The translations under genes were made by a program, and so were the position numbers. From Candidatus Harrisonbacteria bacterium (GTDB taxonomy: Bacteria > Patescibacteriota > Minisyncoccia > UBA6257 > UBA11618), in the NCBI GenBank assembly GCA_016867415.1, contig VGJO01000002.1, forward strand, positions 118,472 through 182,471: DNA of 64,000 nucleotides. Reading direction: 5' to 3'. Each line of letters opens with the position of its first letter. Position 1 is the first letter of the stretch. The notes beneath the pieces were generated by a model. It was given only the letters and a program-made list of their open reading frames with translations, searched no databases and was not told where the DNA came from. Positions 3,812 through 61,440 of the stretch are shown one piece after another.

Positions 3812-3879
3812 ATAACCCTTATCTTAATATTACCAAACAGATAATCGTGACAAATATGAGCAGGATTTTTGTCCCTATG

Positions 3880-4067
3880 ATGAGCCTCCACTAGCAATAA
3901 TAGGCTTTAAAAGAAAAAATAAAAACTTCATTAAAGAATGAATAAAATAAGATAAAGCGAGCGAAAGAAAGAGAGGCTTGCGAGGAGGTATGCTGGGCTA
4001 ATGTATGTCGACGAGCAAACAGAATTTTCGACAAAGTCAGAGGAAAAAGAAAAGCGCCAAAAAACAA
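3880..4067 (+). repeat. Degenerate family A-like element, copy R0, abutting smc stop codon; starts with GAGCCTCCAC motif
   Basis: aggtatgctgggctaatgtatgtcgacgagc resembles R8 core cagcatactgggctaagtctgtgagg; 3' end gaaaagcgccaaaaaacaat directly precedes tta (smc stop). Confidence 0.5.
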
Positions 4068-6611: not shown

Positions 6612-6742
6612 GTGACTATTCTGAAGAAAAGATCTTAATTTTTTATGGTATTTTTTATCTCCTTTTTCCCCAAAAAAATCCTTTTCAAGGACAGAAGAAT
6701 CCATTCTCAGGATTGGATTCTGAGTCACAGAAAGAGAGAAGA
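6612..6742 (+). repeat. Family B repeat fragment (B5)
   Basis: cgtgactattctgaagaaaag...tttttatggtatttttt...ttttcaaggacagaagaa...gagtcacagaaag matches family B 3' module. Confidence 0.55.
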
Positions 6743-6775
6743 AATTTTTTAAAAATAACAGTACAAATCCGTGCT

Positions 6776-7456
6776 TTATTTCTCCAAAGCCTTCTTCGCC
6801 GCCTCCGCCTCTGCCTCCTGCTTTGAAAAGCCTTTTCCCTTCGCTAGCAATACTCCATCCACATACACTCCCACTTCAAAAGTCTTTTCGTGTTCCGGTC
6901 CCTCCTCATGAGTTACCCGGTACTCTGGAGTAATTTTCTTCTCTTTCTGAATCTCTTCCTGAAGGAGGCTCTTAGGATCACGATAATTTCCACTCTTTAA
7001 GACCTCGTGCAAATACTTCATCAAAAATCGATCAAGATACCCCTTCACCGCGCCGTAGCCCCCATCCAGATATATCGCCCCAATCAAAGCCTCCGCCGCA
7101 TTCGCAAGGATCACTTCCATCGCCCGCTTTGTGTCCCGCGCCTCTCCTCGCGATACGAGCATCTTCTTCTCAAGACCACTTTCCTTCGCTACCTCCGCCA
7201 TCATTAAGTAATTGACAAGTGATGCTCGGAGCGGCGTAAGCGCCCCCTCACTTTTCTCTGGAAACCGATGATAAAGCTCCTCAGTCACAATAAGCTCGAG
7301 CACTGCATCTCCTAAAAATTCCAGTCGCTCATTATGAGGAAATGGCCATCTCGGATTTTCATTCAAATATGAGCGATGGGTAATCGCCTCCTTTAAATAC
7401 TCTGGCTTAGAAAATCGATATCCTATAGTTCTCTCTATTTCTCCAATATCCACCAT
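6776..7456 (-). CDS. rnc: Ribonuclease III
   Basis: 226 aa; RNase III signature ERLEFLGDAVLELIVTEELY; C-terminal dsRBD with GxGxSKxxAxxxAA-like KGKGFSKQEAEAEAAKKALE. Confidence 0.9.
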   Translation of the reverse strand: MVDIGEIERTIGYRFSKPEYLKEAITHRSYLNENPRWPFPHNERLEFLGDAVLELIVTEELYHRFPEKSEGALTPLRASLVNYLMMAEVAKESGLEKKMLVSRGEARDTKRAMEVILANAAEALIGAIYLDGGYGAVKGYLDRFLMKYLHEVLKSGNYRDPKSLLQEEIQKEKKITPEYRVTHEEGPEHEKTFEVGVYVDGVLLAKGKGFSKQEAEAEAAKKALEK

Positions 7457-9010: not shown

Positions 9011-10171
9011 CTATTCAACTTCAGATAAATAATCCTTGCAAGCCACTTTAATATTATCAGGTAGCTTCTGGCTAATATTTTTATATAAAATCACAAAATT
9101 CTTACATTCTTCTCGACTAAAAGTAGTAACCAATTGATTTTTTTTATCTTTACTCTTAATCCTTTGAGCAAAAACCTTACAGGCTTGTTTCGGATCTTTA
9201 CCCAAGCTATTAAGATAAGAAAAAAAATCATTCCTCATCGCAACATCATAATTAAAGTTAGCCTTTCCAGTCGGATTAAGAACTTCTTTAATTTCAGGAA
9301 TTTTATCAATAATGCCGGTTTGTAAAGTTTTACCCCGAATCACAAGAGAAATAAATTTATAGTAAATATCATATCCATATTTATCAATAAAATAACCGGC
9401 TATTAAGGCTCCAGAGTTATAAAGGTCATAAACTTCCTGTTTATCTTGAGAATAAGCCTCTATTTTAAAAAAGGAATCAAAAGAACGACATAACCCGGTA
9501 GGACCAAAAATAATCTTCTTCCTTTCAAAAAACTGCAGGCAAGTTCGATTAACAAAAGACTCGCTCTCTTCTAAAGTACAAGTACCTTCATCAAAGCATC
9601 GAGGAAGAGGGGTTTGGAACATTCGACCCAAAAGTACATGAGATATTTCATGAGGAGCAATATTATCAAGTACATATTGAAAATCATTAGCAATAAAAAA
9701 CATGGTGAAAGTATTGTTTAAGAAAGAAGTTTTACCCTTTCCGAAAAAAGTTAAAAATGTATTTCCACTACCAGCCGGCTCAGAAAGATTAGGGAAAAAA
9801 ATGGAATTAAGTTTAATCTTCACATTTATATAAATATCATCTCCTCGAAGACTACAATTTTGCCTATCACAAAAATTTTTATATTGATCCGCCATTGCAT
9901 CCGCTATTTTTTCAAAATCAACAGCTCGTAAAACAATATCAGAAGAGATAGGAGCTAATTGATCACTTTTTTCAAGATCAGCAATAGGCTGATCTCCAGG
10001 CGTTTGAGAAAAAGTAAAATGAATGACAATTTTAGTTCCATCTTTGTCGGCTATTACCGTCCTTACTATTTCTTCAGTTGCAAGAGAAAGAGCATAAGAA
10101 AAGTAAAAAAATAAGAATAAGAATAAAAAAGTATTTTTAAAATAAAAAAGGAAACCCTTAAAGTTAATCAT
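9011..10171 (-). CDS. Secreted hypothetical protein with HExxH zinc-metallopeptidase-like motif
   Basis: 386 aa; hydrophobic N-terminal signal/anchor (FLFLFLFFYFSYALSLA); HEISHVLLG motif; A/T-rich codon usage. Confidence 0.55.
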   Translation of the reverse strand: MINFKGFLFYFKNTFLFLFLFFYFSYALSLATEEIVRTVIADKDGTKIVIHFTFSQTPGDQPIADLEKSDQLAPISSDIVLRAVDFEKIADAMADQYKNFCDRQNCSLRGDDIYINVKIKLNSIFFPNLSEPAGSGNTFLTFFGKGKTSFLNNTFTMFFIANDFQYVLDNIAPHEISHVLLGRMFQTPLPRCFDEGTCTLEESESFVNRTCLQFFERKKIIFGPTGLCRSFDSFFKIEAYSQDKQEVYDLYNSGALIAGYFIDKYGYDIYYKFISLVIRGKTLQTGIIDKIPEIKEVLNPTGKANFNYDVAMRNDFFSYLNSLGKDPKQACKVFAQRIKSKDKKNQLVTTFSREECKNFVILYKNISQKLPDNIKVACKDYLSEVE

Positions 10172-10980
10172 CTTTTTGGAGCATGCATTTCAATACTTTT
10201 AGCTAGATCTTCAATATTTTTCTTATACCAGTCTTCCCCAAAATTATCTAATAAGACTTTCCTTAAAACAGGATCATTTTTCATATCTGTTATCAATCTT
10301 CTGGTAACTCTTGCCGTAGGCACTATTCCGACTTGATAAATGTTTTCTGTATTAGGAAAATAACCATCATTAATGAGAGTGAACACATCTTTAATATAAG
10401 CAGAATTCTTTTCTAAAAAATCCTTAACCAAAGACCTATAGATTGGTAGAGTAGGATCATTGGGATAATTATCTTGAAGATGACGCAATATAGAGATTCC
10501 AAAGATCATAAAAGCCGCATTCCCCTCTGATAAATTACCCAAATCAGTTGTATTAGGATCAGAAGTTTTGATATTTCTATTACTTCTCACCATTTGTAAT
10601 CTCCATACATTACCAAAATAATAAGCGTCCATCTCATCAAAAAGATAAGACAATTGGGTCCAATAATTATTAGAAAAATAGGTTCCTGACTTTCTGCAAT
10701 ATTTAGCCATATCTTTAGGAATATAAGGTCGTTGGGTATAAGCTTGCAAAGTACTCTGAGATTGAGGGATTACATAAAAGCAAACTCTTTTTGGAGCATT
10801 TCCAGAAAATTGAATATCTTTTACTAGACAAGCAAAAGTATTAGGCTTCTTCCCAGCATTTTTAATGCATCCTACAAGCTTCGTTATAGCCATGAATTTT
10901 TTCGTGAACATTATTATCAGAAAAATTTTTAGAAAGAGCTTCTCTGCAAAGAGCATTATCGCCGCAAGAAGCAAGGTCAT
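10168..10980 (-). CDS. hypothetical protein (start uncertain; ATGA overlap with downstream gene)
   Basis: 270-aa ORF; hydrophobic N-terminus; 5' end overlaps the neighbouring ORF in another frame, so an internal Met start is possible. Confidence 0.45.
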   Translation of the reverse strand: MTLLLAAIMLFAEKLFLKIFLIIMFTKKFMAITKLVGCIKNAGKKPNTFACLVKDIQFSGNAPKRVCFYVIPQSQSTLQAYTQRPYIPKDMAKYCRKSGTYFSNNYWTQLSYLFDEMDAYYFGNVWRLQMVRSNRNIKTSDPNTTDLGNLSEGNAAFMIFGISILRHLQDNYPNDPTLPIYRSLVKDFLEKNSAYIKDVFTLINDGYFPNTENIYQVGIVPTARVTRRLITDMKNDPVLRKVLLDNFGEDWYKKNIEDLAKSIEMHAPKR

Positions 10981-11311
10981 TTACATCATTAATACAAAAA
11001 AAATTAATATCAGATAGATCATTATTATGATTAGTAGGCCCCCGACTATTTAAAACATCGAGTTTACTCTGAAACTCATTTACATCTTTGGCTTTTATTA
11101 TATGAATAATCCTTTTACCATCTTTAAATTCAAAAATACAATTCGAACCCAAAAATCCATCATCGCGAAAAGAGATTATTTTTTTTGTTAAATTTTCTCG
11201 CACAAGAGAATTAATAGAAGAATCATCACAGGCTATTAAAGAATATCGAAGATCCTGAGCAAAAGAAAAAAAAGGAGCAAAAAACAATAGAAGAAGAAAG
11301 AAAAATCTCAT
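10862..11311 (-). CDS. Secreted hypothetical protein
   Basis: ORF 10862..11404; internal Met gives signal peptide MRFFFLLLLFFAPFFSFAQD and removes overlap with upstream gene. Confidence 0.45.
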   Translation of the reverse strand: MRFFFLLLLFFAPFFSFAQDLRYSLIACDDSSINSLVRENLTKKIISFRDDGFLGSNCIFEFKDGKRIIHIIKAKDVNEFQSKLDVLNSRGPTNHNNDLSDINFFCINDVNDLASCGDNALCREALSKNFSDNNVHEKIHGYNEACRMH

Positions 11312-11315
11312 GAAG

Positions 11316-12380
11316 TTAGAAGACACTCCCCACCAAATCAGAAGAATTAGATAATGACCTTTTACATTCTTGAACAGCTTGATCAATCTTATTATTAAAA
11401 TCATTTTTAGCAGTAGCTAAAGCAGCTAGTAAATTCTGATTATTTCTTTGGCTAACAAGATCGGACAGATCTTTAAGAGCCTCATAAGCTAATTGAAAAT
11501 TTTCATTTTTCTTAATTAATGCATCTCGGGTACACTGACCAGGAATAGTATTAGACGAAAGCGAATTATTACCTTCCGGCATAATCACCTGCGGCGGCAA
11601 CTGCATCCGAGCTAAACAATCTTTATAATCTTTATACGCTGCCTGTATTGCCGCAATCTTTTTCTCTGATTCATCTGCGTTGATAGCACAATTAAACGAA
11701 GTCAAAGTTTTTAATAACTTCTGAATCTCGGGAATAGTATTCGATACAAAGTTATCTATATTCAGATCTTTTCCATTTACATAATCCTTAACCGAATCGA
11801 CAAAGTCCACCACATCTTTCTTTTCTTTTGGAGATAAACGACAATACTTGTTTTGAGCTAAATTGACATACCGATCATAAGGCAACCCTCGAATAAGAGT
11901 AATAAGATCACTTTTTTTCTTATCTAGTTCCGCCTTATCCGGTATCGCTGGCTCCAAAAGTCCAGAATTTTTTCTCGCTTCAGTCACAAGACCGCTCACA
12001 TACGCCTCCTTATTCTCTCGCTTGGCATACGCTTCCGGGTCCCCAATCCGTCCCATCACATAGGAAGCAATGCTATTTGCATTTCCTTCGTTAATTCCAT
12101 TAAGCTTCGCCGCATCATTCGGATCAAGCGGGGTATCAAAAAGATACTTCGGTGAGGTGACATTAAAAGTAATCGTATGCGGCCCCAGTTTTCTCACGCA
12201 GGTATAGGTCGTGTGATAAACAGCGTCATCTCCCGGCTTGCACTCCGCCGCCTGCACCTCCTCCGCTAACGGAAAAATAGTTTTTTGTTTAGCAACAACA
12301 AGCAAAAGTAAACTTACAAAAATAAGAGAAAGAATCAAATATTTTTTTCTGTTATTTCCAGTATTTTTTTTCTTTTTCAT
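11316..12380 (-). CDS. Secreted hypothetical protein
   Basis: 354 aa; N-terminal KKKK + hydrophobic signal (YLILSLIFVSLLLLVVA); several Cys; no known motif. Confidence 0.55.
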   Translation of the reverse strand: MKKKKNTGNNRKKYLILSLIFVSLLLLVVAKQKTIFPLAEEVQAAECKPGDDAVYHTTYTCVRKLGPHTITFNVTSPKYLFDTPLDPNDAAKLNGINEGNANSIASYVMGRIGDPEAYAKRENKEAYVSGLVTEARKNSGLLEPAIPDKAELDKKKSDLITLIRGLPYDRYVNLAQNKYCRLSPKEKKDVVDFVDSVKDYVNGKDLNIDNFVSNTIPEIQKLLKTLTSFNCAINADESEKKIAAIQAAYKDYKDCLARMQLPPQVIMPEGNNSLSSNTIPGQCTRDALIKKNENFQLAYEALKDLSDLVSQRNNQNLLAALATAKNDFNNKIDQAVQECKRSLSNSSDLVGSVF

Positions 12381-12383
12381 GAA

Positions 12384-13832
12384 TTAATTAAAATTTCTAA
12401 ATTCTGAAACACGCCACGGTTGAAGTTCAGGATGAGGATATTTATCTACATCGTAGTAAAAGACAGGAATAACACTACCGTCTTTCTGAAACTTGCTATA
12501 ATTTTTATAAGAATGAGGCTTAGCTTCCTGACATGGTACGCACCACGAAGTAGACAGTTGGAGTCGAAATGGTTTGCCGCTCGCCTTTAGTTCCTCAAAC
12601 TGATTATTATCTATTTCAAATGACATCCCTTTTCGAGGATCATCAGGCTTTAGAAGATTATTATTCGGCTGCGTCGCCGGCTTCAAACACGCTACTAGTT
12701 TAATCGGACCAGGCAATTTCACCGCCACCGTCACCTTTGATCCGCATTTTTTATCATTTTCCTCTTTAAGCCGCATAAGCTCATATTCAATCTTCGCTTT
12801 TTTGTCCGACACACTGCACGCCGCCGCTTTCCCCTCTAGTTCATTTTTCTGTTTTTCATAGGTATCGCAAAAAAACTGATCATTTTCCTTAAACGGGGTA
12901 AATGAACAATCATCCTTTTGCTTCTTCAAGCACGCCTGCACCGATTTCAAAAGATCCCCTATATTAAATTTACCTGGATCAGGATATAGATATTTCTCTC
13001 CATCTTTCTCCACGTCCGCTGTTAAGATTTTTAACTCCCACACAAGCGAATAATACGACAACAGCGGTCTTTGAGGAGGTTCAGGTAATGCATTTATTTT
13101 ATTAATGAGCTCAAAAACCACATCTCGATTCTTATTAATATCTTGGAATTTTTTATTTACTTCCACAATATTTGAACCATTCTTTGCAATGGCTGGAATT
13201 TGAAAAATTCCTTTTACATAATTTTTTCCGTTATACTTATCTGCATTATATTTTGCAATCGCCTCATTCGCCGCCTTAATCGCCTTATCGCAATCCGGAG
13301 AAACAATACACGGTTTTTCTTTTATTATTTTATAAGGACCAAAAACCTTCCCATTCTTAGCATTAGTAATAGTAATATATGACTCTCCTTTCTCTTCTTT
13401 TATTGTAACTTCATCACCAGGATAAATTAGTATACAACTAGTCTCTTCTCCATTCTCATCAACTGTACATACTTGTTCCACATTCTTATTCTTATCTTTT
13501 TCCTCCTTCTCATTCTTATATTTAACCTTACATCCTCCCTTACATAAATCAGCTAAAGAAGTATCTGAAGGAACAATATCCACTCCCGAATCATCCATCT
13601 TCCCCGAAAGACAAACTTTCAATTTCTGAGTCAGGGTTTGTACTTCTTTTTTTAGATCTTCAAGCTTAAAAAAATCATCATTATTTATGGCCTCTCGCAG
13701 TAATTCTCTCGCCTTCCTAAGTTCTTCAGAGATAGCCCCGCAATCCGGCCGGGCTTCTTGAGCAAAAGCAAATTGAAAAGAAAAAATACTCAAGAAAAAC
13801 CCCATTAAGAAAAACCAAGCGCTATATTTCAT
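12384..13832 (-). CDS. Cys-rich secreted hypothetical protein with C-terminal thioredoxin-like WCxPC motif
   Basis: ORF 12384..13886; signal peptide from internal Met (MKYSAWFFLMGFFLSIFSFQFAFAQE); about 24 Cys; C-terminal FRLQLSTSWCVPCQ resembles the Trx active-site context (F.AEWCGPCK). Confidence 0.55.
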   Translation of the reverse strand: MKYSAWFFLMGFFLSIFSFQFAFAQEARPDCGAISEELRKARELLREAINNDDFFKLEDLKKEVQTLTQKLKVCLSGKMDDSGVDIVPSDTSLADLCKGGCKVKYKNEKEEKDKNKNVEQVCTVDENGEETSCILIYPGDEVTIKEEKGESYITITNAKNGKVFGPYKIIKEKPCIVSPDCDKAIKAANEAIAKYNADKYNGKNYVKGIFQIPAIAKNGSNIVEVNKKFQDINKNRDVVFELINKINALPEPPQRPLLSYYSLVWELKILTADVEKDGEKYLYPDPGKFNIGDLLKSVQACLKKQKDDCSFTPFKENDQFFCDTYEKQKNELEGKAAACSVSDKKAKIEYELMRLKEENDKKCGSKVTVAVKLPGPIKLVACLKPATQPNNNLLKPDDPRKGMSFEIDNNQFEELKASGKPFRLQLSTSWCVPCQEAKPHSYKNYSKFQKDGSVIPVFYYDVDKYPHPELQPWRVSEFRNFN

Positions 13833-13882
13833 AAACTCTTTCTTGAAGAATATCATAATAAAAAAAGAATGTTTTCCCCAGA

Positions 13883-15604
13883 TCACGGCATCTGCACAAC
13901 CGGCATCGTGATTCCGCCTCGACTTCGCTTATACTGCTTCGGCGGAGTATTAGAGACCTCGTTCACCGCCTCCTGTATCTTCGCCCGCTTAAGCGCCTCC
14001 TCAGCTTCTTTTAAAAGCTCCTCCGCCTCTTCTTTTAATTCCTTCTGAAGCTTCGCCCGCTTAAGCGCCTCCTCAGCTTCTTTTAAAAGCTCCTCCGCCT
14101 CTTCTTTTAATTCCTTCTGAAGCTTCGCCCGCTCAAGCGCCTCCTCAGCTTCTTTTAAAAGCTCCTCCGCCTCTTCTTTTAATCTCTTTTCTTTCATTAG
14201 TCCATTCCCCTTCATACAGTAAGATGGTAAAAGCTTTTGCACCTCCACATCACTAATTGCAAGAACTCTCAGATCGAAATCAGAAAGCTTTTTGGCATTA
14301 TCAATAAAATCACAGATATCATTCACCTTATTATCATCAATATCTTTGATATCTTTTATTTTTTGTTCAATTTCTTTCTTCATCTCACGAAGAGTGGCAA
14401 GATTTGCGTTGATTTTATTCCTATTCTTTTCTGTATTAACAACTGCTACATCCACCCATCCTAAACCTTTTCCTTCACTTAGATTTTTAAACAATTCCTC
14501 AAGCCTATTCACTCGCCCCCAAATCACCTGCAACACTGATTGTAGATTATTCTTCATCAAAACTACCTGCCCTCTATCACAAATCGCTTCTCCCTTCGAA
14601 ATCGTCAGAAAGTCGTTAATAAGTTCAGAAAGTCGTAAAAGATCCTTTTCTTCTCCGCTTCGTTTTTTACCTAGAATTAATGGATCTACTATAGTCACCG
14701 ACCCCCCAATAACCGCCACATGATTATTAGCGTTTTCCATTTGCACCAATTCATTCGCAATAGTAATAAGATACCAATTAATATTTCCTAAAAATGAAAT
14801 ATTAGAAAGCACCTCTTGCACACCTTCTAAGATCTGCTTCTTGGCACTACTTACAATAGCAAGAGAGTCTGCTAAAAATACATTTTCAATATTAGTCTTC
14901 ACTTCATTAAGTACCAGACCCTTTATAAGCTCCTCCGCCGCTCCATACTTCTCCGCAAAAAGATCTGCTAACCGCTCGATCAAATTATCGGGTGATTCCG
15001 TATTCCCTTCTACAAACTTCGTCACGTCTGTAAGAAATTCGAAGACCTCGCTTGGGAAAAGTTTGTTATCTTTTGATTTTGCGCACATAAGCGCCACTCG
15101 ACCCTTCACGCATGCTTTATACTCAGAAGACACTCGGCGAAAAAGCGACACCGCCAAATCCGTTACTACTTTCTTAAGATTTTCCAGTTTATCCTCATTA
15201 TTCTTAAAAAACTTTTGAAGCACCGTATCTACTCGAGTTCGCTGATCATTTGAAAGCCGGCTATATGACGAACTAAAAAATCCTTGGGACACCTCTTCCA
15301 TGATCTTCTGTTCAATATTGATAAAAAATTCATCCCCGCCTAACTTCTCCTCCACCGCTTCCCGAATCGCTTTCTCCGCCTCATCAGCCAAAGCCGGACT
15401 GTTTAGCATCTCATCTACAAGTGTTTTCACTTTAACACAACCCACCCTACACCTTTGTTTGATAAGATCAGCAAGAGTAGTAGGCATCTCTTGAGTCTCG
15501 GGTGATGGTTTTTTAGATACTTCTTGAGCCAAGCTAAAATAAGGAAAAGAGAAACAAACCGTACTCACTACCAAAAGAAAAATCATACCCGTTCTCGAAA
15601 ACAT
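13883..15604 (-). CDS. Secreted coiled-coil hypothetical protein with 3 tandem 24-aa repeats
   Basis: 573 aa; signal peptide MFSRTGMIFLLVVSTVCFSFPYFSLAQE; C-terminal repeats LQKELKEEAEELLKEAEEALKRAK x3; stop-start overlap ATGA with upstream gene. Confidence 0.6.
   Translation of the reverse strand: MFSRTGMIFLLVVSTVCFSFPYFSLAQEVSKKPSPETQEMPTTLADLIKQRCRVGCVKVKTLVDEMLNSPALADEAEKAIREAVEEKLGGDEFFINIEQKIMEEVSQGFFSSSYSRLSNDQRTRVDTVLQKFFKNNEDKLENLKKVVTDLAVSLFRRVSSEYKACVKGRVALMCAKSKDNKLFPSEVFEFLTDVTKFVEGNTESPDNLIERLADLFAEKYGAAEELIKGLVLNEVKTNIENVFLADSLAIVSSAKKQILEGVQEVLSNISFLGNINWYLITIANELVQMENANNHVAVIGGSVTIVDPLILGKKRSGEEKDLLRLSELINDFLTISKGEAICDRGQVVLMKNNLQSVLQVIWGRVNRLEELFKNLSEGKGLGWVDVAVVNTEKNRNKINANLATLREMKKEIEQKIKDIKDIDDNKVNDICDFIDNAKKLSDFDLRVLAISDVEVQKLLPSYCMKGNGLMKEKRLKEEAEELLKEAEEALERAKLQKELKEEAEELLKEAEEALKRAKLQKELKEEAEELLKEAEEALKRAKIQEAVNEVSNTPPKQYKRSRGGITMPVVQMP
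13975..14195. repeat. Three tandem ~72-bp repeats (coding, inside 13883..15604)
   Basis: cgcccgcttaagcgcctcctcagcttcttttaaaagctcctccgcctcttcttttaattccttctgaagctt repeated 3 times nearly perfectly. Confidence 0.9.
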
Positions 15605-15706: not shown

Positions 15707-15982
15707 TTACTTCTCGTCGCTTTCGGGAGAAGGGAGTGTCGGCTTCTCGGGCAAATTGAGTCCCGGAAAAAGCTGCAAGCCTTCGCGGCTCACTTTCCCC
15801 ATCGCCTGCATGGCTTGGAAAGCGTCGGTCACATCCGACGCTGTCTCGATCGAGGCCTCCAAGGAGGCCTCGATCGCTTGAGCACTCGCATCAAGCGCCC
15901 GCTCCACCTTCTTGCTCTCGAAATGGATGAGGAGAGATATCATCAGCACAAACGCGCTCGAAATACCAAAAAACATTTTCAT
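15707..15982 (-). CDS. Small secreted/membrane hypothetical protein
   Basis: 91 aa; N-terminal hydrophobic segment MKMFFGISSAFVLMISLLIHF. Confidence 0.35.
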   Translation of the reverse strand: MKMFFGISSAFVLMISLLIHFESKKVERALDASAQAIEASLEASIETASDVTDAFQAMQAMGKVSREGLQLFPGLNLPEKPTLPSPESDEK

Positions 15983-16330: not shown

Positions 16331-16387
16331 CTTAACGCAGAGTAGTTTTGTACGAATTTTGCAATTTCTTTGCTCGAAATTATTAAA

Positions 16388-16528
16388 ACGTTACACGTCG
16401 TCAAGCGCAGGATTTTTGGATGGAGTTTGCGATTTCTTTCCGAGGAGCCGCCGCAGCGTACTAAGAGCTAGGTACGTGAGGAGGCACCGCAGGAAAAAAT
16501 CGCAAAATCCGCCAAAAAGACCAGCTCG
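16388..16528 (+). repeat. Family A intergenic repeat, copy R3 (abuts dnaE stop codon)
   Basis: gcgcaggatttttggatggagtttgcgatttctttccgag...cagcgtactaagagctaggtacgtgagg...gaaaaaatcgcaaaatccgccaaaaag; last base 16528, dnaE stop 16529-16531. Confidence 0.75.
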
Positions 16529-20746: not shown

Positions 20747-22495
20747 ATGCCTTCCAAAAAGACCGCCATTTCTTCCCTCGATGCCATCCGCCATTCCCTC
20801 TCCCATGTCCTCGCAATCGCCGTATTAAAAAAATTCCCCGATGCTAAGCTCGCTATCGGCCCCACAATCGACGATGGCTTTTATTATGACTTCCTTCTCC
20901 CCTCCCCGCTCTCAATCGACGATCTCCCTGAACTCGAAGAATCTATGCGAGAGATCATCAAAGCTAATCTTCCCTTCTCCGGCGAAAAAGTAAGCGCGAA
21001 GATTGCCCGGGATTTTCTCCCCGACGCCCCCTTCAAACATGAATTAATTGATGAGCTCGAAAAAAAAGGCGAAGAAATCTCACTGTATAAGACTGGCGAC
21101 GCCTTCATCGATCTCTGTCGCGGTGGCCATGTGAATAATACGAGCGAAATCCCGCTCGACTCCTGGAAGCTTCACAAAGTCGCTGGTGCCTACTGGCGCG
21201 GCGACAATAAACGCGAGCAACTCACTCGCATCTATGGTCTCGCTTTCGAGTCAAAAACCGCCCTCGATGCTCACCTCACGCTCCTTGCTGAAGCCGAAAA
21301 ACGCGACCACAAGAAACTCGGTCCCGAGCTTGGCCTCTTTTTCTTTCACGACACTGCCCCGGGCATGGCCTACTGGCTCCCTAAGGGCATGATCGTCATG
21401 AATGAACTTGTTAATTTCTGGCGCAAAGAGCATGAAGCTCGTGGCTACAGTGAGATCAGTTCCCCACTCATCAACAAAAAAGCTCTCTGGGAGACCTCCG
21501 GCCACTGGGAACACTATAAGGATGATATGTTTATTTGCGACCACGGCGAAGATGAAGTCTATGGTGTCAAAGCCATGAACTGCCCCAATGCCATGATCGT
21601 CTTTGGCTCCACCACTCGCAGTTACCGCGATCTCCCTCTCCGCCTTTCCGATACCGATATGCTCCATCGTCATGAGCTTTCCGGCACCTTAAATGGCCTT
21701 CTCCGCGTACGGAGTTTCCGCCAAGATGATTCTCACAATTTCATCACCGAAGATATGGTAAAAAGCGAATACGAAGCCATCCTCGAGATCGCCGACCGCT
21801 TTTATTCCATTTTTGATTTGAAGTACCGTCTCCGCCTCAGTACCCGACCCGAGAAATTCCTAGGTGATAAAGAGACCTGGGACAGAGCCGAACGAGAACT
21901 AAAAGAAATCTTAGATACCCGCTGCGGTAAAGATGGTTACGAAATTGCCGAGGGCGATGGCGCCTTCTATGGACCAAAAATAGACATCGTGATGGAAGAT
22001 GCCCTAGGCCGAAAGTGGCAAATGGGCACCATCCAGCTCGACTTCCAGCAGCCCCGTCGCTTTAATCTCGAGTACACGGGTGCCGATGGCAAAAAACATA
22101 CTCCCATCGTCATTCACCGAGTCATCTATGGATCGCTCGAGCGCTTCATTGGAATCTTGATTGAACACACTGCCGGCCATTTCCCTCTCTGGCTCTCCCC
22201 GGTCCAAGTAAAGATAGTAAATGTCGGCCTCGACCATGAAGCGTTTGCTAGTAAACTCAAGGATGAATTAAAAATTGCCGGCATTCGCGCTGAGCTAGAT
22301 GCCAGTAACGAAACCCTCGGAAAAAAAATCCGCACCGCCCGCCTCGAAAAAGTCCCCTACCTCATCGTCGTTGGCGACAATGAAATCAGCTCCAAGAACT
22401 TCAATCTTGAAGCCCGCGAAAAAGAAAAGAATTATACGGGTGGAAAAGACGAGCTCATCTCCCACCTCCACTCCCTCATTAAAGCTAAAAAATAA
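20747..22495 (+). CDS. thrS: Threonyl-tRNA synthetase (lacks N-terminal TGS domain)
   Basis: 582 aa; begins at editing-domain motif RHSLSHVLAIAV (HxxxH); class II motifs incl. HRHELSGTLNGLLRVRSFRQDDSHNF; C-terminal anticodon-binding domain. Confidence 0.88.
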   Translation: MPSKKTAISSLDAIRHSLSHVLAIAVLKKFPDAKLAIGPTIDDGFYYDFLLPSPLSIDDLPELEESMREIIKANLPFSGEKVSAKIARDFLPDAPFKHELIDELEKKGEEISLYKTGDAFIDLCRGGHVNNTSEIPLDSWKLHKVAGAYWRGDNKREQLTRIYGLAFESKTALDAHLTLLAEAEKRDHKKLGPELGLFFFHDTAPGMAYWLPKGMIVMNELVNFWRKEHEARGYSEISSPLINKKALWETSGHWEHYKDDMFICDHGEDEVYGVKAMNCPNAMIVFGSTTRSYRDLPLRLSDTDMLHRHELSGTLNGLLRVRSFRQDDSHNFITEDMVKSEYEAILEIADRFYSIFDLKYRLRLSTRPEKFLGDKETWDRAERELKEILDTRCGKDGYEIAEGDGAFYGPKIDIVMEDALGRKWQMGTIQLDFQQPRRFNLEYTGADGKKHTPIVIHRVIYGSLERFIGILIEHTAGHFPLWLSPVQVKIVNVGLDHEAFASKLKDELKIAGIRAELDASNETLGKKIRTARLEKVPYLIVVGDNEISSKNFNLEAREKEKNYTGGKDELISHLHSLIKAKK

Positions 22496-23339: not shown

Positions 23340-23675
23340 CCAGATTAAATCTAGAATCTATATAAATAAAAAGCTTGAGCGATAGCAAAAGCTCACCTAA
23401 GGTGTAAACCTTCGTTTCATAAAAACGAAGAAATCAATCTTTGATTAAAAAAAGTCGGAGACTTTTTACTCCCTCCTCCACTACTCACGCCACCCAATCT
23501 CTCTACTACCAAAGAAACTTTTATCTTCTCCTAAAATGACCATCCACAGAAAAATGGCATGGTTTTTTTATGGTAATGCTTTTTCTTCTTCTGTCCTCAA
23601 CGGATTGCCATAAAAAAAATTTTCAAGGACAGAAGAAAAAGCCGCTGGGCTTTTTATGGGTCACGGAAGGAAAAG
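23340..23675 (+). repeat. Family B composite repeat, near-full copy B1
   Basis: ataaataaaaagc...cttcgtttcataaaaacgaag...aaaaaagtcggagacttttt...ccaaagaaactttt...atgaccatccacagaaaaatggcatggttttttt...ttttcaaggacagaag...gggtcacggaagg. Confidence 0.65.
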
Positions 23676-26416: not shown

Positions 26417-26553
26417 ATCCAGCACAGATGTAAGTGAAGTAATTTTGGAGGATTTTTCGATTTTCTTTTCGAGCAGGCATCGGAGCATACTGCGGGAAGT
26501 ATGTGAGAAGCCAGCGCATAAAAAAAATCGAAAAAGACCCAAAAGTACAAGCG
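26417..26553 (+). repeat. Family A intergenic repeat, copy R4 (abuts nusG stop codon)
   Basis: aagtgaagtaattttggaggatttttcgattttcttttcgagcaggcatcggagcatactgcgggaagtatgtgagaagccagcgcataaaaaaaatcgaaaaagacccaaaagtacaagcg; nusG stop 26554-26556. Confidence 0.8.
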
Positions 26554-29292: not shown

Positions 29293-29417
29293 AGATATAA
29301 ATAAGTAACTTAATTATAGCAAAAAAAAGAAGGCTCCACCACCCCCTTTTATTCTCTAAAAAACACTCATTCTAACCAGCGTAAGTAAAGTATTTTTGCT
29401 TTGTCCGCCGTAGCCTC

Positions 29418-29517
29418 TGGCGAAGGAGGAGAATTTTTCGATTTTCTTTCAAAAAAGCCAGGGTAAAGCGGAGAGAACGTGATAGTTTGTACTCAAACTA
29501 TCACGTTCTACAAGCGC
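29418..29517 (+). repeat. Family A variant, copy R5 (alternative central palindrome)
   Basis: ggaggagaatttttcgattttctttc shared with family A; central perfect palindrome gaacgtgatagttt-gtactc-aaactatcacgttc; ends ctacaagcgc 8 nt before the stop of 29526..29873. Confidence 0.5.
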
Positions 29518-34538: not shown

Positions 34539-34669
34539 TACTTCTACAGAGAATGTAAAGCTCATAATAGCTTATTTTCCGGCACTTTAAAAGATGTAAT
34601 CATTTTTCTTTACGTGACTACCTTAGCGTTTATACCTCCTATTCCGGAAAAGTAAAACGTATCCTTATT

Positions 34670-34812
34670 GCGACCTTCTGCAGAAAAGAAGCTTGGCTTT
34701 TTTGTGATATGCTTTTGTCTAGTTTTCTATCCTCAAAGGCATACCACAAAAAATTCTTTTCGAAGCCTGAATGAGAGCTCGCAGGAGCTTTCATGTGTCG
34801 TAATAAGGATAT
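34670..34812 (+). repeat. Family B repeat, 3' module copy B4
   Basis: gaccttctgcagaaaag...ttttttgtgatatgcttttg...cataccacaaaaaattcttttcgaagcctgaatgagagctcgcaggagctttcatgtgtc. Confidence 0.6.
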
Positions 34813-35747: not shown

Positions 35748-35882
35748 CCTCAGTTCCATGAAGTAATTTTGAATAAAGTTTCGCGATTCTTTCCGAAGAG
35801 CCAAGGAAGCACTACTAAGAGCTGAGTATGTGAAGAGGTGCCATAGAAAAAACCGCGAAAATTCTCCAAAAGTACGAGCGCC
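35748..35882 (+). repeat. Family A intergenic repeat, copy R6 (abuts mrdA stop codon)
   Basis: gaagtaattttgaataaagtttcgcgattctttccgaag...ctgagtatgtgaag...gaaaaaaccgcgaaaattctccaaaagtacgagcgcc; mrdA stop 35883-35885. Confidence 0.75.
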
Positions 35883-40359: not shown

Positions 40360-40592
40360 TGCATAAAAAAGTCCCCGACTTTTTACTCACCCCGTCTACC
40401 CTACCATCCTCACCTAATTCTAGCATCACCAAGAAATATTTCTCTCCCTTGAGTGACCATCCGCAGAAAAGTGGCATGGTTTTTTTGTGTTGTTATTTTG
40501 TCTTCCCTGCCCTCAAAAGAACAACACAAAAAACACTTTTCGAGGAAAGAATAAAAAATTCGCAGGAATTTTTTATGCGTCACGAAGAGGAG
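40360..40592 (+). repeat. Family B composite repeat, copy B2
   Basis: aaaagtccccgactttttactcacc...ccaagaaatattt...gagtgaccatccgcagaaaagtggcatggtttttttgtgttgttattttg...caacacaaaaaacacttttcgagg...atgcgtcacgaag. Confidence 0.65.
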
Positions 40593-44643: not shown

Positions 44644-44808
44644 AGTCTTTTCTATACTAATCCCTTTTCCTTTAAAAATAAAAAGGTTGGCGCGAAATGT
44701 AAGCCTACCTAGGGATGAGTCTCTCTTAAAGGGAGAATAGAAAAACTTATATTTCTCTCCTTGCTTTTATCTACACCATTCATGTATTTTATAAACACTT
44801 CCATGCCC

Positions 44809-45816
44809 ATGTTTGTCCGAAAAATTGGTATTGATCTTGGCACGGTAAATACCGTCGTCTATGCAGAAGGCCTTGGTTTTGTGGTCAATGAGCCCACAAT
44901 AGTTGCTCTTTCCTACCCCGACAACACCGTCATCGCCGTCGGTCGCGAAGCAAAGGAAATGGTGGGCAAGACTCCCGAAGACATCGTCGCTTACCGTCCA
45001 CTCAAAGACGGTGTCATCGCTGACTATTATATTACGCGCGCGATGCTCAAGTATTTCATTAGTAAAGCTCTGGGTAATTTTAATTTTTTCAAACCCGATC
45101 TGGTAATCAGCGCTCCCGCTGGCATCACCCCTAACGAAAAAAGAGCGATTACAAACGCCGCCTTGGAATCAGGTGCGAAGACCGTTGCTATAGTAAAAGA
45201 GCCTATCCTCGCCGCTCTTGGTGCTGGCATCCCGATCAACTCTCACTCGGGTAATATGATCATCAATATCGGCGGTGGCACGGCTGAAGTCGCAGTCATC
45301 TCCTTAGGCTCCGTCGTCTCCTGGTCATCGCTACGCGTCGCCGGAAACAAATTTGATCAAGCGATTATCGATCTTATTAAACGAAAATATTCTCTCTCTA
45401 TTGGCGAGCAAACCGCCGAAACTATCAAAATCCAGATCGGCGCCGCCCTCCCCGCCCGCCAAAAGCTCGAAATGGAGACTCGCGGTCGCGACCTCATCTC
45501 CGGCCTGCCAAAAAATATCATAGTCAATTCCAATGAAATCGCCGAAGCCTTGAATCCCCACCTCATGGATATTGCCACCGCCGCTCAAAATGTCTTCAAC
45601 AATACCCCGCCCGAGCTCGTCGCCGACGTTATGGAAAAAGGCATTATTATCTCTGGTGGCGGCGCCCAGATCCGCTACATTGATGAGTTCTTCAAGCGGA
45701 TGCTTGGCGTCGAGGCCTACATCGCCGAAGAGCCTCTTTTCTGCGTCGCCAAAGGATCCTCTCTCATCCTCTCCCACCTCGACACATACAAACGCACCCT
45801 CTTAAACAAAAGATAA
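44809..45816 (+). CDS. Second MreB/Mbl-like actin homolog
   Basis: ORF 44761..45816; MreB motifs from internal Met: IGIDLGTVNTVVY, NIGGGTAEVAVIS, IISGGGAQI; one of only three plus-strand genes. Confidence 0.85.
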   Translation: MFVRKIGIDLGTVNTVVYAEGLGFVVNEPTIVALSYPDNTVIAVGREAKEMVGKTPEDIVAYRPLKDGVIADYYITRAMLKYFISKALGNFNFFKPDLVISAPAGITPNEKRAITNAALESGAKTVAIVKEPILAALGAGIPINSHSGNMIINIGGGTAEVAVISLGSVVSWSSLRVAGNKFDQAIIDLIKRKYSLSIGEQTAETIKIQIGAALPARQKLEMETRGRDLISGLPKNIIVNSNEIAEALNPHLMDIATAAQNVFNNTPPELVADVMEKGIIISGGGAQIRYIDEFFKRMLGVEAYIAEEPLFCVAKGSSLILSHLDTYKRTLLNKR

Positions 45817-45980
45817 AAAAAATTATTTTTGAAGCCTGAATGAAAGCTTGCTGGATCATAGGACTTTTTGTGCTCTAATAGTCTGAAGATCCACAGTACT
45901 TGGGGGCCTTTCATGTATTGGGAAAAACTTGAGCTTATTTTTTTCCTCTCCCTCTAAATTACTATCTACTAGCCACTGCT

Positions 45981-47505: not shown

Positions 47506-48939
47506 TTAAGGGAATTGATGCAAAAAATCAAAAAAGTGGTAGATGGCAGGTGGCAGTATCGGTAGTAATGATTGCAGTAATAGTAGTGATAATGCAGGTG
47601 CAGGTGCAGGTGCAGGTGTAGGTGCAGGTGTAGGTGCAGGTGTAGGTGTAGATGTAGGTTCAGGTGTAGGTGTAGGTGTAGGAGTAGGTGTAGGAGTAGG
47701 TGTAGGAGTAGGAGGAGGAGCAGGAGGAGGAGCAGGAGGAGGAGGAGGAGGTGGAGGAGGAGGAGGAGGAGGTGGAGGTGGAGGTGGAGGTGGAGGTGGA
47801 GGAGGAGGTGGAGGTGGAGGTGGAGGTGGAGGAGGAGTAAGTTCAGTTGCATGAGGAGGTTCAGGTGTAGGTTCAGGTGTAGGTTCAAGTGTAGGTGAGC
47901 CGTCTACTAGGGCGCCGCCATCGCCGCCATTGCCGCGATTGCCGCCATCGCCACCATTGCCACCATTGCCACCATTGCCGCCATTGCCGCCATTGCCGCG
48001 ATTGCCGCCATTGCCGCCATCGCCGCCATTGCCGCCATCGCCTGTATTGCCTGTATTGTCTGTATTGCCTGTGAATCCAGTCAACTTTGAAATTTCATTT
48101 AATATTAGTTTACGTTCATCAGAATCTCTCAAAAATTTTTCGGCTATTTTTTCAATTTTCGCTTCTATTTCGGCTTGGCTTTTTGGTGACCAAGATTCAA
48201 TAGCGGCAGGCAAAGAACTGGCTTCAATAAAACTATCATTGATGAATACTGGCACTTCTTCTCTCCTTGATTCTCCTCCATACGCTTGGGCTGTTAACCT
48301 CCCCATTTCATTGTTCTTATTCGAAGCAAATCCCCGTTTCCATCCCAATTTTTGCTCTATCCATCTGACCACCCACTGCTCAAAGGATTCGGCCGCTGCC
48401 GCATTCGCCTGCAAGCTTGCGAATCGGACACCCACCGAATAACTCCCGAAAGTATAGTGGTAAAAAAACAATGTATCTTCATTTGTATCCGGATTAATTC
48501 CATTTTTCCCGTTTTGTGGATCAATCGGCAAAGCATCAATCTGAATCCCAGGAATCTGCCGAAAATCAATTGGTAGCCAACCACTTCCATCAATCTGCGT
48601 AAGTCGCTCTTTTGGCACACATCGGTAATCATACCCCTCCGCTAATTGAAGCAAACCCCGATCTCTCCAATAGCCACAAGTCGGATCATCATCTGGTAAG
48701 GAAACATAGACAAGCCGCCGCTCCCCTAAAAGAGCATATTGAGCCTGCTCATCTATAAAGCTAATAAGTTGAGAAAGAAACTTAAGATCTTTATTGCGTT
48801 GCCGATCTACCTGAAAACGAAAAAATTCCAAAGGATTAATCGTCACCGAAAATACCCCTGCAATAAGAAAAAAAGACACCCCGATAAGCAAGGCTTTCAC
48901 CGGAAAAGATAAACGCTCGAGCCTCTGCATGAGCTCCAT
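47506..48939 (-). CDS. Membrane-anchored/secreted hypothetical protein with GN-rich, poly-Pro (34 P) and (TP)n tail
   Basis: 477 aa; N-terminal TM ALLIGVSFFLIAGVF; ~300-aa globular region; then GNGGNGGDGG repeats, P34 run, TPTPTP repeats, hydrophobic C-terminus. Confidence 0.65.
   Translation of the reverse strand: MELMQRLERLSFPVKALLIGVSFFLIAGVFSVTINPLEFFRFQVDRQRNKDLKFLSQLISFIDEQAQYALLGERRLVYVSLPDDDPTCGYWRDRGLLQLAEGYDYRCVPKERLTQIDGSGWLPIDFRQIPGIQIDALPIDPQNGKNGINPDTNEDTLFFYHYTFGSYSVGVRFASLQANAAAAESFEQWVVRWIEQKLGWKRGFASNKNNEMGRLTAQAYGGESRREEVPVFINDSFIEASSLPAAIESWSPKSQAEIEAKIEKIAEKFLRDSDERKLILNEISKLTGFTGNTDNTGNTGDGGNGGDGGNGGNRGNGGNGGNGGNGGNGGDGGNRGNGGDGGALVDGSPTLEPTPEPTPEPPHATELTPPPPPPPPPPPPPPPPPPPPPPPPPPPPPPPPPPAPPPAPPPTPTPTPTPTPTPTPTPEPTSTPTPAPTPAPTPAPAPAPALSLLLLQSLLPILPPAIYHFFDFLHQFP
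47594..48062. repeat. Coding simple-sequence repeats (hexamer ggtgca/ggtgta, trimer gga/ggt, nonamer gccgccatt)
   Basis: Visible runs caggtgcaggtgcaggtgtagg..., ggaggaggaggtggaggtgg..., gccattgccgccattgccgcgattgcc... Confidence 0.9.
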
Positions 48940-50583: not shown

Positions 50584-50805
50584 ACGCTAGCACCCAGCAT
50601 AAGCGAAGTAATTTTGAGCTTATTTTCGTTCTTCTTTTCTAAAAAGGTACCGGAGCATACTACAGGAAGTATGTGAGGAACGTTTTTAGAAAAAAGGATG
50701 AGCCTCCACTACTACTAGATAAACAAAGAAAAAGAAGAAACAGAATAATCAGTAGAAGAGAGATAAGGTCGGCTACACGAGCGAAAGAAGCCAAAAATAC
50801 GAGCG
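50584..50805 (+). repeat. Family A repeat copy R7 carrying a ~100-nt nested insertion (GAGCCTCCAC motif)
   Basis: acgctagcacccagcataagcgaagtaattttgag...ggagcatactacaggaagtatgtgagg... then atgagcctccactactactag...aatcagtagaag... then gccaaaaatacgagcg; rpoA stop 50812-50814. Confidence 0.7.
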
Positions 50806-56640: not shown

Positions 56641-56780
56641 AACAGCGAATAACGTAAGCGAAGTAATTTTGGATGGAGTTTGCGATTTCTTTTCGAGCAG
56701 GCACCGCAGCATACTGGGCTAAGTCTGTGAGGAGCCAGCGGAGAAAAAAATCGCAAAATCCGCCAAAATTACAAGCACCC
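56641..56780 (+). repeat. Family A intergenic repeat, copy R8 (ends 2 nt before rpmB stop codon)
   Basis: aacgtaagcgaagtaattttggatggagtttgcgatttcttttcgagcaggcaccgcagcatactgggctaagtctgtgaggagccagcggagaaaaaaatcgcaaaatccgccaaaattacaagcaccc. Confidence 0.8.
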
Positions 56781-56971: not shown

Positions 56972-57269
56972 ACAAGTAAAATTAAGTATCCGTAATTCTA
57001 CCTTATCTCCTCTTTTTTTGCAAATGAATCAGAGCGGACGGCAAAAAAATCATGTAGCCACACCATATCCTGCCTATCCGGCTGCCTTGCCTCCCCCGAC
57101 GCGCCGATTGGTTGCACCACATAAATGATCTTATATTGGAGAAGTTCCTTTTTCCTAATATGTTCCCATACCACCTGATCCTGTGTTACTCATGTTGTCT
57201 TCGCCGTCCATCATACCACCTGAGCCTTTGTTTTCTTAAAAAAAATAATTCAATCGAAGATTGAAGAAA

Positions 57270-57590
57270 AAAGTCTTTGACTTTTTGCTCACCCCTCCAC
57301 TCTCTCCTCTCTTTATTACATCTCAATCTCTGCGCCAGCAAAGAACTCTACCTTTCCCGTGAGTGACCTTCTGCAGGACGAGCTTCCACAAAGAAAAATA
57401 TTCTTTAAAGAAAAAAACAAAAGCATCAGTATAAAAAGACTAAAACAAGATAAAGTCAGCGAGGCATGGTTTTTTCATGGTGTTATTTTTTCTTCTTCTT
57501 TCCCAAAAATAACACCATGAAAAATTTTCTCCGAAGCCTGAATGAAAGCTCGCAGGAGCTTTCATGTGTCACGAAGGGGAAAGGTGGGGT
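57270..57590 (+). repeat. Family B composite repeat, copy B3
   Basis: aaaaagtctttgactttttgctcacc...gtgaccttctgcag...catggtgttatttttt...aaaataacaccatg...gcctgaatgaaagctcgcaggagctttcatgtgtcacgaagg. Confidence 0.7.
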
Positions 57591-61224: not shown

Positions 61225-61440
61225 CGACACCTCGCCACGGGATTTTTTATAAATAAAAGGGCTTAAGTGAAGTGAAAGACTACCAAAGGAGTATGTCTTC
61301 GTTTCTGGGAAACGAAGAAAAGAAATATTAATTGTGTTCAATCAAAATTTCTTTGAAAAGATTGTAAATCTTTTGCTTACTCCTCCACTTTCCGCCCCGC
61401 CAATCTCGACATTACCAAAGAAATATTTTTTTAAAACAAT
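61225..61440 (+). repeat. Family B repeat, 5' module only (B7)
   Basis: ataaataaaagggcttaagtg...cttcgtttctgggaaacgaagaaa...cttactcctccactttccgcc...ccaaagaaatattttt parallels 23340-23520 of copy B1; runs to the rpoD stop. Confidence 0.5.

Follow-up and report, generated by a model that had tools for sequence, protein, structure and literature searches.

A co-oriented intergenic hairpin repeat with compensatory stem changes in a Candidatus Harrisonbacteria genome

The intergenic spacers of a Candidatus Harrisonbacteria genome carry a previously undescribed family of dispersed repeats, here called family A, the intact copies of which each fold into one long hairpin whose paired bases have changed together. 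We analysed 64,000 nucleotides of this genome (GenBank assembly GCA_016867415.1, contig VGJO01000002.1, positions 118,472 to 182,471 of the forward strand; hereafter the window), of which family A, with a repeat length of ~120–145 bases, occupies ~2.5%. Patescibacteria (candidate phyla radiation, CPR), the candidate phylum to which this bacterium belongs, have genomes that are among the smallest and most streamlined and that are usually considered poor in selfish DNA, and we found no family of the REP (repetitive extragenic palindrome), REPIN or MITE (miniature inverted-repeat transposable element) type described for them in the literature. On balance, we favour the reading that family A belongs with the palindromic repeats of the REP/REPIN/ERIC/MITE kind, being non-coding and non-autonomous, and that it was inserted into spacers and is selected as a folded single strand.

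Four routes of detection (exact-seed repeat finding, a degenerate 5′-arm pattern, a covariance model (CM) built from six copies and a sequence-only nhmmer profile) agree on seven full copies in the window, every one on the + strand; the 22-nt degenerate pattern, for example, has seven matches there against 0.00 expected. Full copies score 104–131 bits with the CM, except for R7, which scores low (53.7 bits) because of an insert in its 3′ arm. The original prediction of a dispersed, co-oriented intergenic repeat is borne out by repeat finding, CM and nhmmer alike, but its tally of ten copies changes: in addition to the seven full copies, R9 is split, R5 is a fragment and R0 is undetected and doubtful, whereas a divergent copy (R10; 62878–63017) and a solo 5′-arm fragment (16338–16373) are new.

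Each unit consists of a 12–20-nt 5′ tail of one of two subtypes (ACGCTAGCAC...GTAAGCG or GTGTCAGTTMC), an imperfect hairpin of ~110 nt and, at the 3′ end, a short GAGCGCC(C)T(T)A segment. Intact copies form a single long imperfect hairpin of ~50 pairs on either strand and with RNA or DNA parameters, with fold z-scores of −4 to −8 relative to shuffles; for most copies, 0 of 200 shuffles were as stable, R6 being weaker. The hairpin runs GCG-AAG-TAATTTTGG ... CCAAAAGTAC-GAG-CGC with a GGA/GA loop, and includes conserved T/A tracts (TTTTGG/CCAAAA and TTTC.../...GAAAAAAAT) and a conserved apical part (GGAGCATACT...AGTATGTGAG). The arms are T-rich or A-rich and non-palindromic in themselves, and modules are combined differently among copies, so that the family is a mosaic. 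Two candidate motifs in the 5′ tail were set aside: an IS66-like 'GTAAGCG' end, because the opposite end is not its inverted complement, and the ssoA CS-6 motif 'TAGCGT', which occurs only in R1 and R7 and was therefore treated as a coincidence.

Covariation was assessed in 17 distinct copies from the window and from other contigs of the same organism. Across the consensus stem, 91.7% of cells were paired, compared with 77% in shuffles, and double (compensatory) changes were found at 20 of the 41 pairs and in 100 cells, compared with 14.7 and 36 in shuffles; none of 500 column shuffles reached the observed values. When partners were slid by 1–3 columns, pairing dropped to 39–51% and the covariation score fell from 0.37 to below 0.09, and an RNAalifold consensus of six copies alone gave double changes at 15 of 41 pairs. 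The variation is concentrated in two stem boxes that are hypervariable yet complementary: at least six fully complementary variants of box 1 (CGATT/AATCG, GCGAT/ATCGC, CCTAT/ATGGG, TTATT/AATAA, GGGAT/ATCCC and CGCGA/CGCG) and at least seven of box 2, which has the form NN-A-NNN-R-NN / NN-A-NNN-A-NN and in which covariation extends to all seven pairs but the A·A mismatch stays fixed. The GA-rich loop and the A·A mismatches are conserved while flanking pairs vary freely. Compensation on this scale goes beyond what recent copying and pasting would give and indicates that an intramolecular hairpin is under constraint. The paired substitutions on which selection on a folded structure had been proposed are exact, both in the outer helix (the first box 1 variant above in R4, the second in R3 and R8, the third in R1 and the fourth in R2) and in the apical hairpin (GCATACT/AGTATGT versus GCGTACT/GGTACGT).

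All copies in the window are antisense to the flanking genes, with the 3′ end 0–15 nt from the stop codon of the right-hand gene and, on the left, 35–105 nt in which the next gene usually starts and has a promoter-like site. Three lie inside normally co-transcribed operons (rplJ–rplL, rpoA–rplQ and nusG–rplK), and copies in operons occur in both orientations. We rejected an intrinsic terminator function on the basis of this operon placement and of the lack of a T-run after the hairpin on either strand; canonical terminators are present at other places in the window. The stop codon in use falls within the terminal CC(C)T(T)A motif of the element in at least seven copies, and the complement of this motif often provides the TAA or TAG of the neighbouring gene. 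The complement GTAGGG is also found in a copy where no gene ends (L056:8191), and the element may either supply the stop codon or insert beside such a tetranucleotide. In 16 of 20 copies, inspection by eye showed a (G/T)TA(A/G) tetranucleotide, usually the stop codon of the neighbour, on the G-rich strand 0–12 nt 5′ of the hairpin foot.

Comparison with relatives identifies the copies as insertions. The rplJ–rplL spacer measures 170–185 nt here but 9 nt (L082/L083) or 41 nt (L080) in relatives with 61–70% identical L7/L12 proteins, which keep the gene order (one of them, L077, has an unrelated 125-nt spacer), and a CM search of six loci from relatives (79 kb in all) found no copies. Some copies in the window are decayed, split or nested (R5, R7 and R9). 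Within the organism itself, the sole indel among contigs was a 44-nt slippage deletion in L074, outside the element. Metagenome contigs L071, L072, L076 and L087–L091 end inside or just after family A copies, which act as assembly breakpoints for this organism.

We then related copy orientation to strand composition. Measured along the coding strand, GC skew at third codon positions (GC3) is +0.57 in − strand genes and about −0.5 in + strand genes (in the window, ThrRS at 20747–22495 and MreB at 44761–45816), and is thus linked to the DNA strand rather than to the coding strand; the same pattern holds in L056 and L033. (A strong strand-linked GC3 skew was noted in the window, L056, L033, L029/L095, L040 and L025.) In five contigs (the window; L056/L033/L029, which form one 92.6-kb contig; L040; and L025), 24 of 24 copies have the same orientation on the C-rich strand, where flank skew is −0.10 to −0.33. 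Four verified copies are sense to genes on that strand (ftsE–ftsX, a hypothetical gene–ychF, M16 peptidase–AI-2E transporter and metG–tatD), as two more copies in L040 probably are. Copy orientation therefore appears to track replication-associated strand asymmetry rather than transcription, a rule that is suggestive, not proven, because the discriminating sample is small (4–6 copies). The G-rich strand would be the leading strand, judging by the strand that holds the majority of genes rather than by a mapped origin. Extending the contig with lagging-strand genes gave no further copies.

The same contig offers two side observations on strand asymmetry. Eleven consecutive + strand genes (L095:998–16114, including ProRS-like, MetRS and LeuRS genes, interrupted by one small − strand ORF (open reading frame)) have long been on the C-rich strand. 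They are followed by a gene-poor 1.8-kb stretch (L095:16100–17950) with tRNA-like sequences, small HTH genes and a change of sign in GC skew, and then by a Fur–ZnuABC–CobW block with near-zero skew; the stretch could be an acquired island or a replication landmark, and looks more like an island with tRNAs than a clean origin.

Whether the folded strand is RNA or DNA was assessed from wobble pairs and relative strand stability. In a strand-specific structured RNA, G·U should be tolerated much more readily than A·C. After removal of two columns with a G·T majority, G·T and A·C cells were about equally frequent (23 versus 20), so a strand-specific RNA is not suggested; the raw G·T excess (44 versus 20) stems from those two conserved columns and was rejected as a guide to strand. 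The + (C-rich) strand, the internal loops of which are purine-rich, is more stable in 13 of the 17 copies (mean 3.8 kcal/mol, P about 0.05; 9 of 10 with DNA parameters). Of the RNA or cruciform structure originally envisaged, the intramolecular hairpin stands, whereas RNA is not favoured, given the replication-strand orientation and the symmetric wobble.

Our preference for an inserted REP/REPIN/ERIC/MITE-like repeat selected as a folded single strand rests jointly on insertion, decay and nesting, mosaicism, the lack of coding capacity and structure-preserving variation with fixed mismatches, together with the lack of clear duplications, the symmetric wobble and the replication-strand polarity. 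Because orientation follows the replication strand and wobble is unbiased, the selected form is most likely folded single-stranded DNA (ssDNA) at the replication fork. In the mechanism that we envisage, a structure-specific enzyme would recognize the folded ssDNA hairpin at the fork, a candidate being an HUH/Y1-type transposase as in IS200/IS605 or REP–RAYT (REP-associated tyrosine transposase), or an analogue. The active strand would be the G-rich strand, as lagging-strand template, and insertion would take place beside (G/T)TA(A/G) on that strand, which would explain the distance of 0–15 nt to the stop codons of leading-strand genes. Inserted copies would then be co-transcribed with their neighbours, placing long hairpins in 3′ untranslated regions (UTRs) or intercistronic spacers, where they might serve as RNase III substrates or 3′ stabilizers, a secondary consequence rather than the reason for the family.

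Several observations weigh against this account. No presence/absence polymorphism was seen at R1, R2 or R4 among about 20 metagenome contigs, and hence there is no sign of current mobility; copies that are only 60–90% identical yet 92% paired could reflect selection at the level of the host, locus by locus. Neither the window nor selected ORFs and called genes of related loci revealed a transposase or a RAYT-like gene. One 50-bp hairpin is neither a REP, nor a REPIN, nor a left-end/right-end pair of IS200/IS605. Stop codons confound the GTAG-like motif, which only one of the four copies without a gene end retains (GTAGGG, L056:8191). The orientation rule is discriminated by four verified (six probable) copies in two contigs, which, if oriented at random, would all agree with a probability of 0.06–0.016, and the better-folding C-rich strand is not the presumed lagging-strand template. 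The more specific proposal, that the hairpins are substrates of a putative structure-specific ssDNA enzyme at the fork, whether as a REPIN/RAYT-like, vertically inherited replicator or as host-co-opted, replication-polar ssDNA signals, is tentative, and we think it rather unlikely.

The strongest alternative, which we nonetheless regard as unlikely, is that family A is a host cis-acting RNA, that is, a hairpin selected in the mRNA because it stabilizes 3′ ends, is processed by RNase III or, as an unconventional terminator, keeps transcription units apart in a compact genome. The position of the window copies just after stop codons and upstream of the promoter-like sites of the next genes, the long, near-perfect double-stranded RNA stems that they would form, the RNase III gene at 6776–7456, and their fixation in all sampled populations with pairing kept despite sequence divergence would all fit, and there are precedents in Correia elements with RNase III and in ERIC at Yersinia 3′ ends (PMC10969869). 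However, orientation is constant relative to the replication strand and not to transcription (four verified copies are sense, the rest antisense), copies occur without a U-tract in obligate operons (rplJ–rplL, rpoA–rplQ and ftsE–ftsX), orthologous spacers of relatives lack them, G·U and A·C show no asymmetry, and decayed copies exist. RNA-level effects like those of Correia or ERIC elements are plausible but secondary, by analogy, since transcription yields mRNA hairpins and RNase III is encoded nearby.

Less probable still is a classical MITE whose terminal inverted repeats are read by a DDE transposase that moves the element as double-stranded DNA, with the covariation incidental. Size, AT-richness, intergenic location, nested inserts and copy number fit MITEs (PMC10969869); the outer stem GTAATTTTGG/CCAAAAGTAC, a possible pair of terminal repeats, recurs in a hairpin from a goat-rumen genome (L016, described below) that has the same ends but not the same interior; and TTAA(A) flanks R3 and, less cleanly, R1. 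Against this, an enzyme reading double-stranded DNA ends does not select for internal stem complementarity, and yet 20 of 41 pairs covary and mismatches are conserved; no consistent target-site duplication or terminal inverted repeat beyond the hairpin was found in the copies, the direct repeat TTAAA being clean only at R3 and loose at R1; strict orientation is unexpected for symmetric ends; and no matching insertion sequence was found in the plasmid, phage and Escherichia coli collections.

That the copies are independently transcribed small RNAs, made from the + (C-rich) strand and mostly antisense to gene 3′ ends, seems very improbable: the somewhat better folding of that strand, the purine-rich internal loops (A·A and tandem G·A-like) typical of structured RNA and the conserved G·U that closes the apical stem are in keeping with it, but the copies have no recurrent upstream promoter or downstream terminator, their 3′ ends run directly into the neighbouring ORF, wobble is symmetric, Rfam has no match, and the copies are insertions absent from relatives. 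Finally, integron-type attC or other site-specific recombination sites marking gene cassettes, which share with family A imperfect palindromes of similar length placed right after ORFs in one orientation, conservation of structure over sequence and conserved unpaired bases (R3 and R4 even end in GTTAAAT and GTTAAAC), can be dismissed on core sites and gene content, because most copies lack the RYYYAAC/GTTRRRY core pair, the flanking core genes (rplL, rplJ, dnaE, nusG, rpoA and dnaG) are syntenic with element-free relatives, and no integrase was seen in the annotated sequence.

The individual copies, all on the + strand, differ mainly in completeness. R4 (26417–26553, hairpin 26434–26553), the copy originally flagged, lies between the nusG stop codon (26554) and rplK, whose promoter-like site and start codon (26331) are on its other side; it scores 129.1 bits, has fold z-scores of −5.1 (+ strand) and −5.6 (− strand), and keeps constant spacing in all metagenome contigs that reach rplK. 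R1 (595–734; 5′ tail 595–613, hairpin 614–734) lies between the rplL stop codon (733) and tRNA-Val (128.2 bits; RNA fold −51.5 kcal/mol, z −6.4) and is identical in nine metagenome contigs save for one strain-level G→A change, which converts a conserved G·T into A-T. R2 (1161–1283, CM hairpin 1161–1280; 117.8 bits) occupies the rplJ–rplL operon spacer. R3 (16388–16528, hairpin 16405–16526; 126.5 bits, −57 kcal/mol) has TTAAA at both flanks and abuts the dnaE stop codon (16529); the solo 5′-arm fragment beside it (16338–16373) matches nhmmer positions 2–37 (E = 0.007). R6 (35748–35882, hairpin 35758–35880; 103.5 bits), between the stop codon (35883) of a PBP2 (mrdA-like) gene and tpiA, has the weakest fold of the copies. 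R8 (56641–56780, hairpin 56658–56777) is the best CM match (131.2 bits; −52 kcal/mol) and lies between tRNA-Pro and the stop codon (56783) of a 62-aa ORF that is probably rpmB/L28, for which no Pfam family was found.

Other copies are interrupted, degenerate or divergent. R7 (50584–50805; nhmmer and CM 50603–50805), between rpoA and rplQ, carries a ~95-nt 'ATGAGCCTCCAC...' insert in its 3′ arm and is found by nhmmer with E = 2 × 10−19. R9 (59465–59770), between the stop codon (59771) of a 426-aa ORF and alaS, is split by two inserts, nhmmer recovering the 5′ arm (59478–59523, E = 7 × 10−9) and a 3′ part (59669–59725, E = 2 × 10−4). In the degenerate R5 (29379–29517), nhmmer detects only 29428–29465 (E = 0.006); by eye, the start and 5′ arm are kept, an insert is present and terminal matches begin at ~29379, and a perfect 15-bp hairpin at 29475–29508 (GAACGTGATAGTTTG-TACT-CAAACTATCACGTTC) stands in place of the 3′ arm. 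A terminator-like hairpin with a T-run lies just downstream of that hairpin on the − strand (29350–29325). R10 (62878–63017), between the stop codon (63018) of a dnaG fragment (63018–63995) and rpoD, scores 23.7 bits (E = 0.002) and folds strongly (−57 kcal/mol, z −8.0). A lookup of the protein of the dnaG fragment returned no record. R10 is 84% identical to L056:2794–2927, an unrelated locus; a single conserved orthologous locus shared by R10 and L056:2793 was rejected because the neighbouring genes are unrelated, and the two are therefore copies of one divergent subfamily.

R0 (3858–4067) appears instead to be pieced together from other small repeats and to resemble family A only at its ends: neither the CM nor nhmmer matches it, the similarity is confined to a 12-nt start (3860) and an end that matches loosely, and R0 is doubtful because its core (3965–4027) is 77% identical to a different small hairpin repeat (GGCTTGCGAGGAGG...GACGAGCAAAC) at L095:17643–17702. 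A module starting ATGAGCCTCCAC(TAC)... is found in the window only within R0 (3880), R7 (50698) and, twice, R9 (59519 and 59710), and also at L040:7740–7781. R7 and R9 share its insertion point in the 3′ arm; its + strand opens with a mini-ORF of 4–6 codons (MSLH(Y)(Y)*), and it may be a nested element or a variant arm. A second dispersed intergenic repeat family, unrelated to family A but also co-oriented, was noted at 23449–23640, 40366–40555, 57268–57580, 34668–34800, 45817–45855, 6631–6763 and 61356–61389, with a 93%-identical copy at L040:9497–9612. It is made up of a terminator-like hairpin (AAAAAGTC...GACTTTTT, with ...CCTCCACT) followed by GGCATGGTTTTTTT...CCATAAAAAAAA and GAAGCCTGAATGAAAGCTCGCAGGAGCTTTCA hairpins.

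Beyond the window, a scan of 185,579 species-representative GTDB genomes with the 5′-arm pattern returned 22 single, taxonomically scattered matches, all by chance except one, and in metagenomes true copies were found only in contigs of the Ga0194xxx series. These copy-bearing contigs have no genes in common with the window; the single-copy housekeeping genes on them are different ones, and the contigs are annotated as Harrisonbacteria, so that they most likely represent further regions of one and the same genome. The one pattern match among viral contigs was not confirmed by the CM, blastn found no match in plasmid, phage and E. coli collections, and relaxed Rfam scans of R3 and R4 gave only sub-threshold, miRNA-like hairpin noise. 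The GTDB match not due to chance is a 120-nt hairpin next to tRNA genes (L016:426–545; JAFSVX010000065.1, a goat-rumen metagenome-assembled genome (MAG) labelled Clostridia) that has family A ends (GTAATTTTGGATGGATTTTTG ... CAAAAGTACGAG) and a different interior, as expected if an enzyme reads the ends. It may be a distant relative and a lead to a wider family defined by its ends, but as far as we have searched family A appears specific to this Ca. Harrisonbacteria lineage.

The genes of the window, on a Pfam search of all sizeable ORFs, are nearly all on the − strand and have core functions (rplJ/rplL with an L10 leader, SMC, RNase III, NusB, DnaE, ThrRS, GatB, NusG, L11, GyrB, PheST, PBP2, MreBCD, RpoA, L17, S4/S11/S13, AlaRS, RpoD and DnaG), and the same search found no transposase or recombinase in the 64 kb. 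At the Rfam gathering threshold only tRNAs and the L10 leader pass. The L7/L12 protein of the window is 100% identical to a Candidatus Harrisonbacteria MAG protein, the next relatives being at most 70% identical, and several metagenomes from fresh water, among them the Ga0194xxx series and a number of SRR/ERR runs, contain the same DNA. Among genes without a Pfam match are six consecutive − strand ORFs of 180–573 aa (9011–15604), flanked by RNase HII and a short 91-aa ORF (15707–15982) likewise without a match. One ORF in this block (13883–15604) holds three in-frame 72-nt tandem units (13969–14188), and a further unmatched ORF (47506–48939) has long in-frame tandem repeats of 12-nt and 9-nt units (47578–48084), Gly/Pro-rich and of low complexity.

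In a region crowded with essential genes, family A is present even within ribosomal-protein and RNA-polymerase operons, and it is fixed across several metagenomes. Its copies break metagenome assemblies and influence stop codon calls, and the long hairpins directly after stop codons may matter for mRNA fate. If the hairpins are substrates of an ssDNA enzyme, the system would be the first of its type in Patescibacteria, whose genomes are ultra-small, and would have a new architecture, with a single 50-bp hairpin, fixed A·A mismatches and 'barcode' stem boxes; should a matching HUH enzyme exist, REPIN-like replicators would extend to a new phylum. Clean covariation with strict replication-strand polarity makes for a tractable natural data set on what reads the hairpins.

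Among known systems, attC sites (for example, the Vibrio cholerae repeats) resemble family A in length, post-ORF position, co-orientation with replication, conservation of structure and unpaired bases, and function as folded ssDNA, the form proposed here; family A differs in having no R″/R′ core sites or integrase and in neighbouring core syntenic genes rather than cassettes. ERIC/YPAL, Correia (NEMIS), RUP, BOX, SPRITE and QMITE2 elements are likewise imperfect palindromes of ~100–200 bp in spacers or 3′ UTRs, and bacterial MITEs can form nested clusters and co-transcribed stable stem-loops, some of them cut by RNase III or altering mRNA stability (PMC10969869). Unlike family A, Correia and RUP elements have defined terminal repeats and TA duplications, and family A shares no sequence similarity with any of these elements: R8, for instance, had no blastn match (word size 11) in 5,426 E. 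coli genomes, which hold ERIC, REP and BIME sequences, and thus no similarity to the 127-bp ERIC consensus of Enterobacteria. To our knowledge, no ERIC, Correia or other bacterial MITE has been reported with strict replication-strand polarity or such internal covariation.

IS200/IS605 elements and their non-autonomous derivatives have no inverted-repeat ends and no duplications, neither of which is clear in family A. Their imperfect ssDNA hairpins are recognized by structure, as those of family A would be, and they insert in a strand- and replication-dependent orientation on the lagging-strand template, where IS608 acts, just 3′ of a tetranucleotide for which family A has only a candidate counterpart (PMC3333891; PMC5027513), with a fixed orientation to the fork comparable to the 24 of 24 family A copies oriented independently of gene direction. 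They have two short subterminal hairpins with guide sequences, whereas family A has one 50-bp hairpin with short tails, and neither tnpA nor tnpB was seen in the available sequence of its host.

A REP is a unit of 20–40 nt, and a REPIN consists of two REPs, each palindromic. With REPIN/REP–BIME and RAYT systems family A has in common an intergenic, high-copy, non-coding, hairpin-forming unit of about 100 nt, a compensated hairpin with conserved stem mismatches (20 of 41 pairs and fixed A·A here), the lack of consistent target duplication, vertical inheritance and fixation, and presumed action on ssDNA at the fork. REPIN hairpins often show compensatory changes (PMC3116915), and REP stems vary but stay complementary, TnpA-REP requiring a stem mismatch and a 5′ GTAG (PMC3333891). 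Family A differs in sequence, in arms that are not small palindromes and so form no REP doublet, in a GTAG-like tetranucleotide that is variable and confounded with stop codons, in that no RAYT gene, which in REP systems is typically flanked by the repeats, was found in the window or among selected ORFs and called genes of related loci, and in its Patescibacterium host. The original view that family A is not recognizable as a REP, BOX, ERIC or Correia type holds for sequence, with no match in Rfam or E. coli, but not for kind, given insertion, decayed and nested copies and REPIN/REP-like compensation. Family A shares the logic of the REP/REPIN–RAYT and IS200/IS605 systems but is a member of neither family, having no sequence similarity, no REP palindromes in its arms, no left-end/right-end pair and no enzyme found so far.

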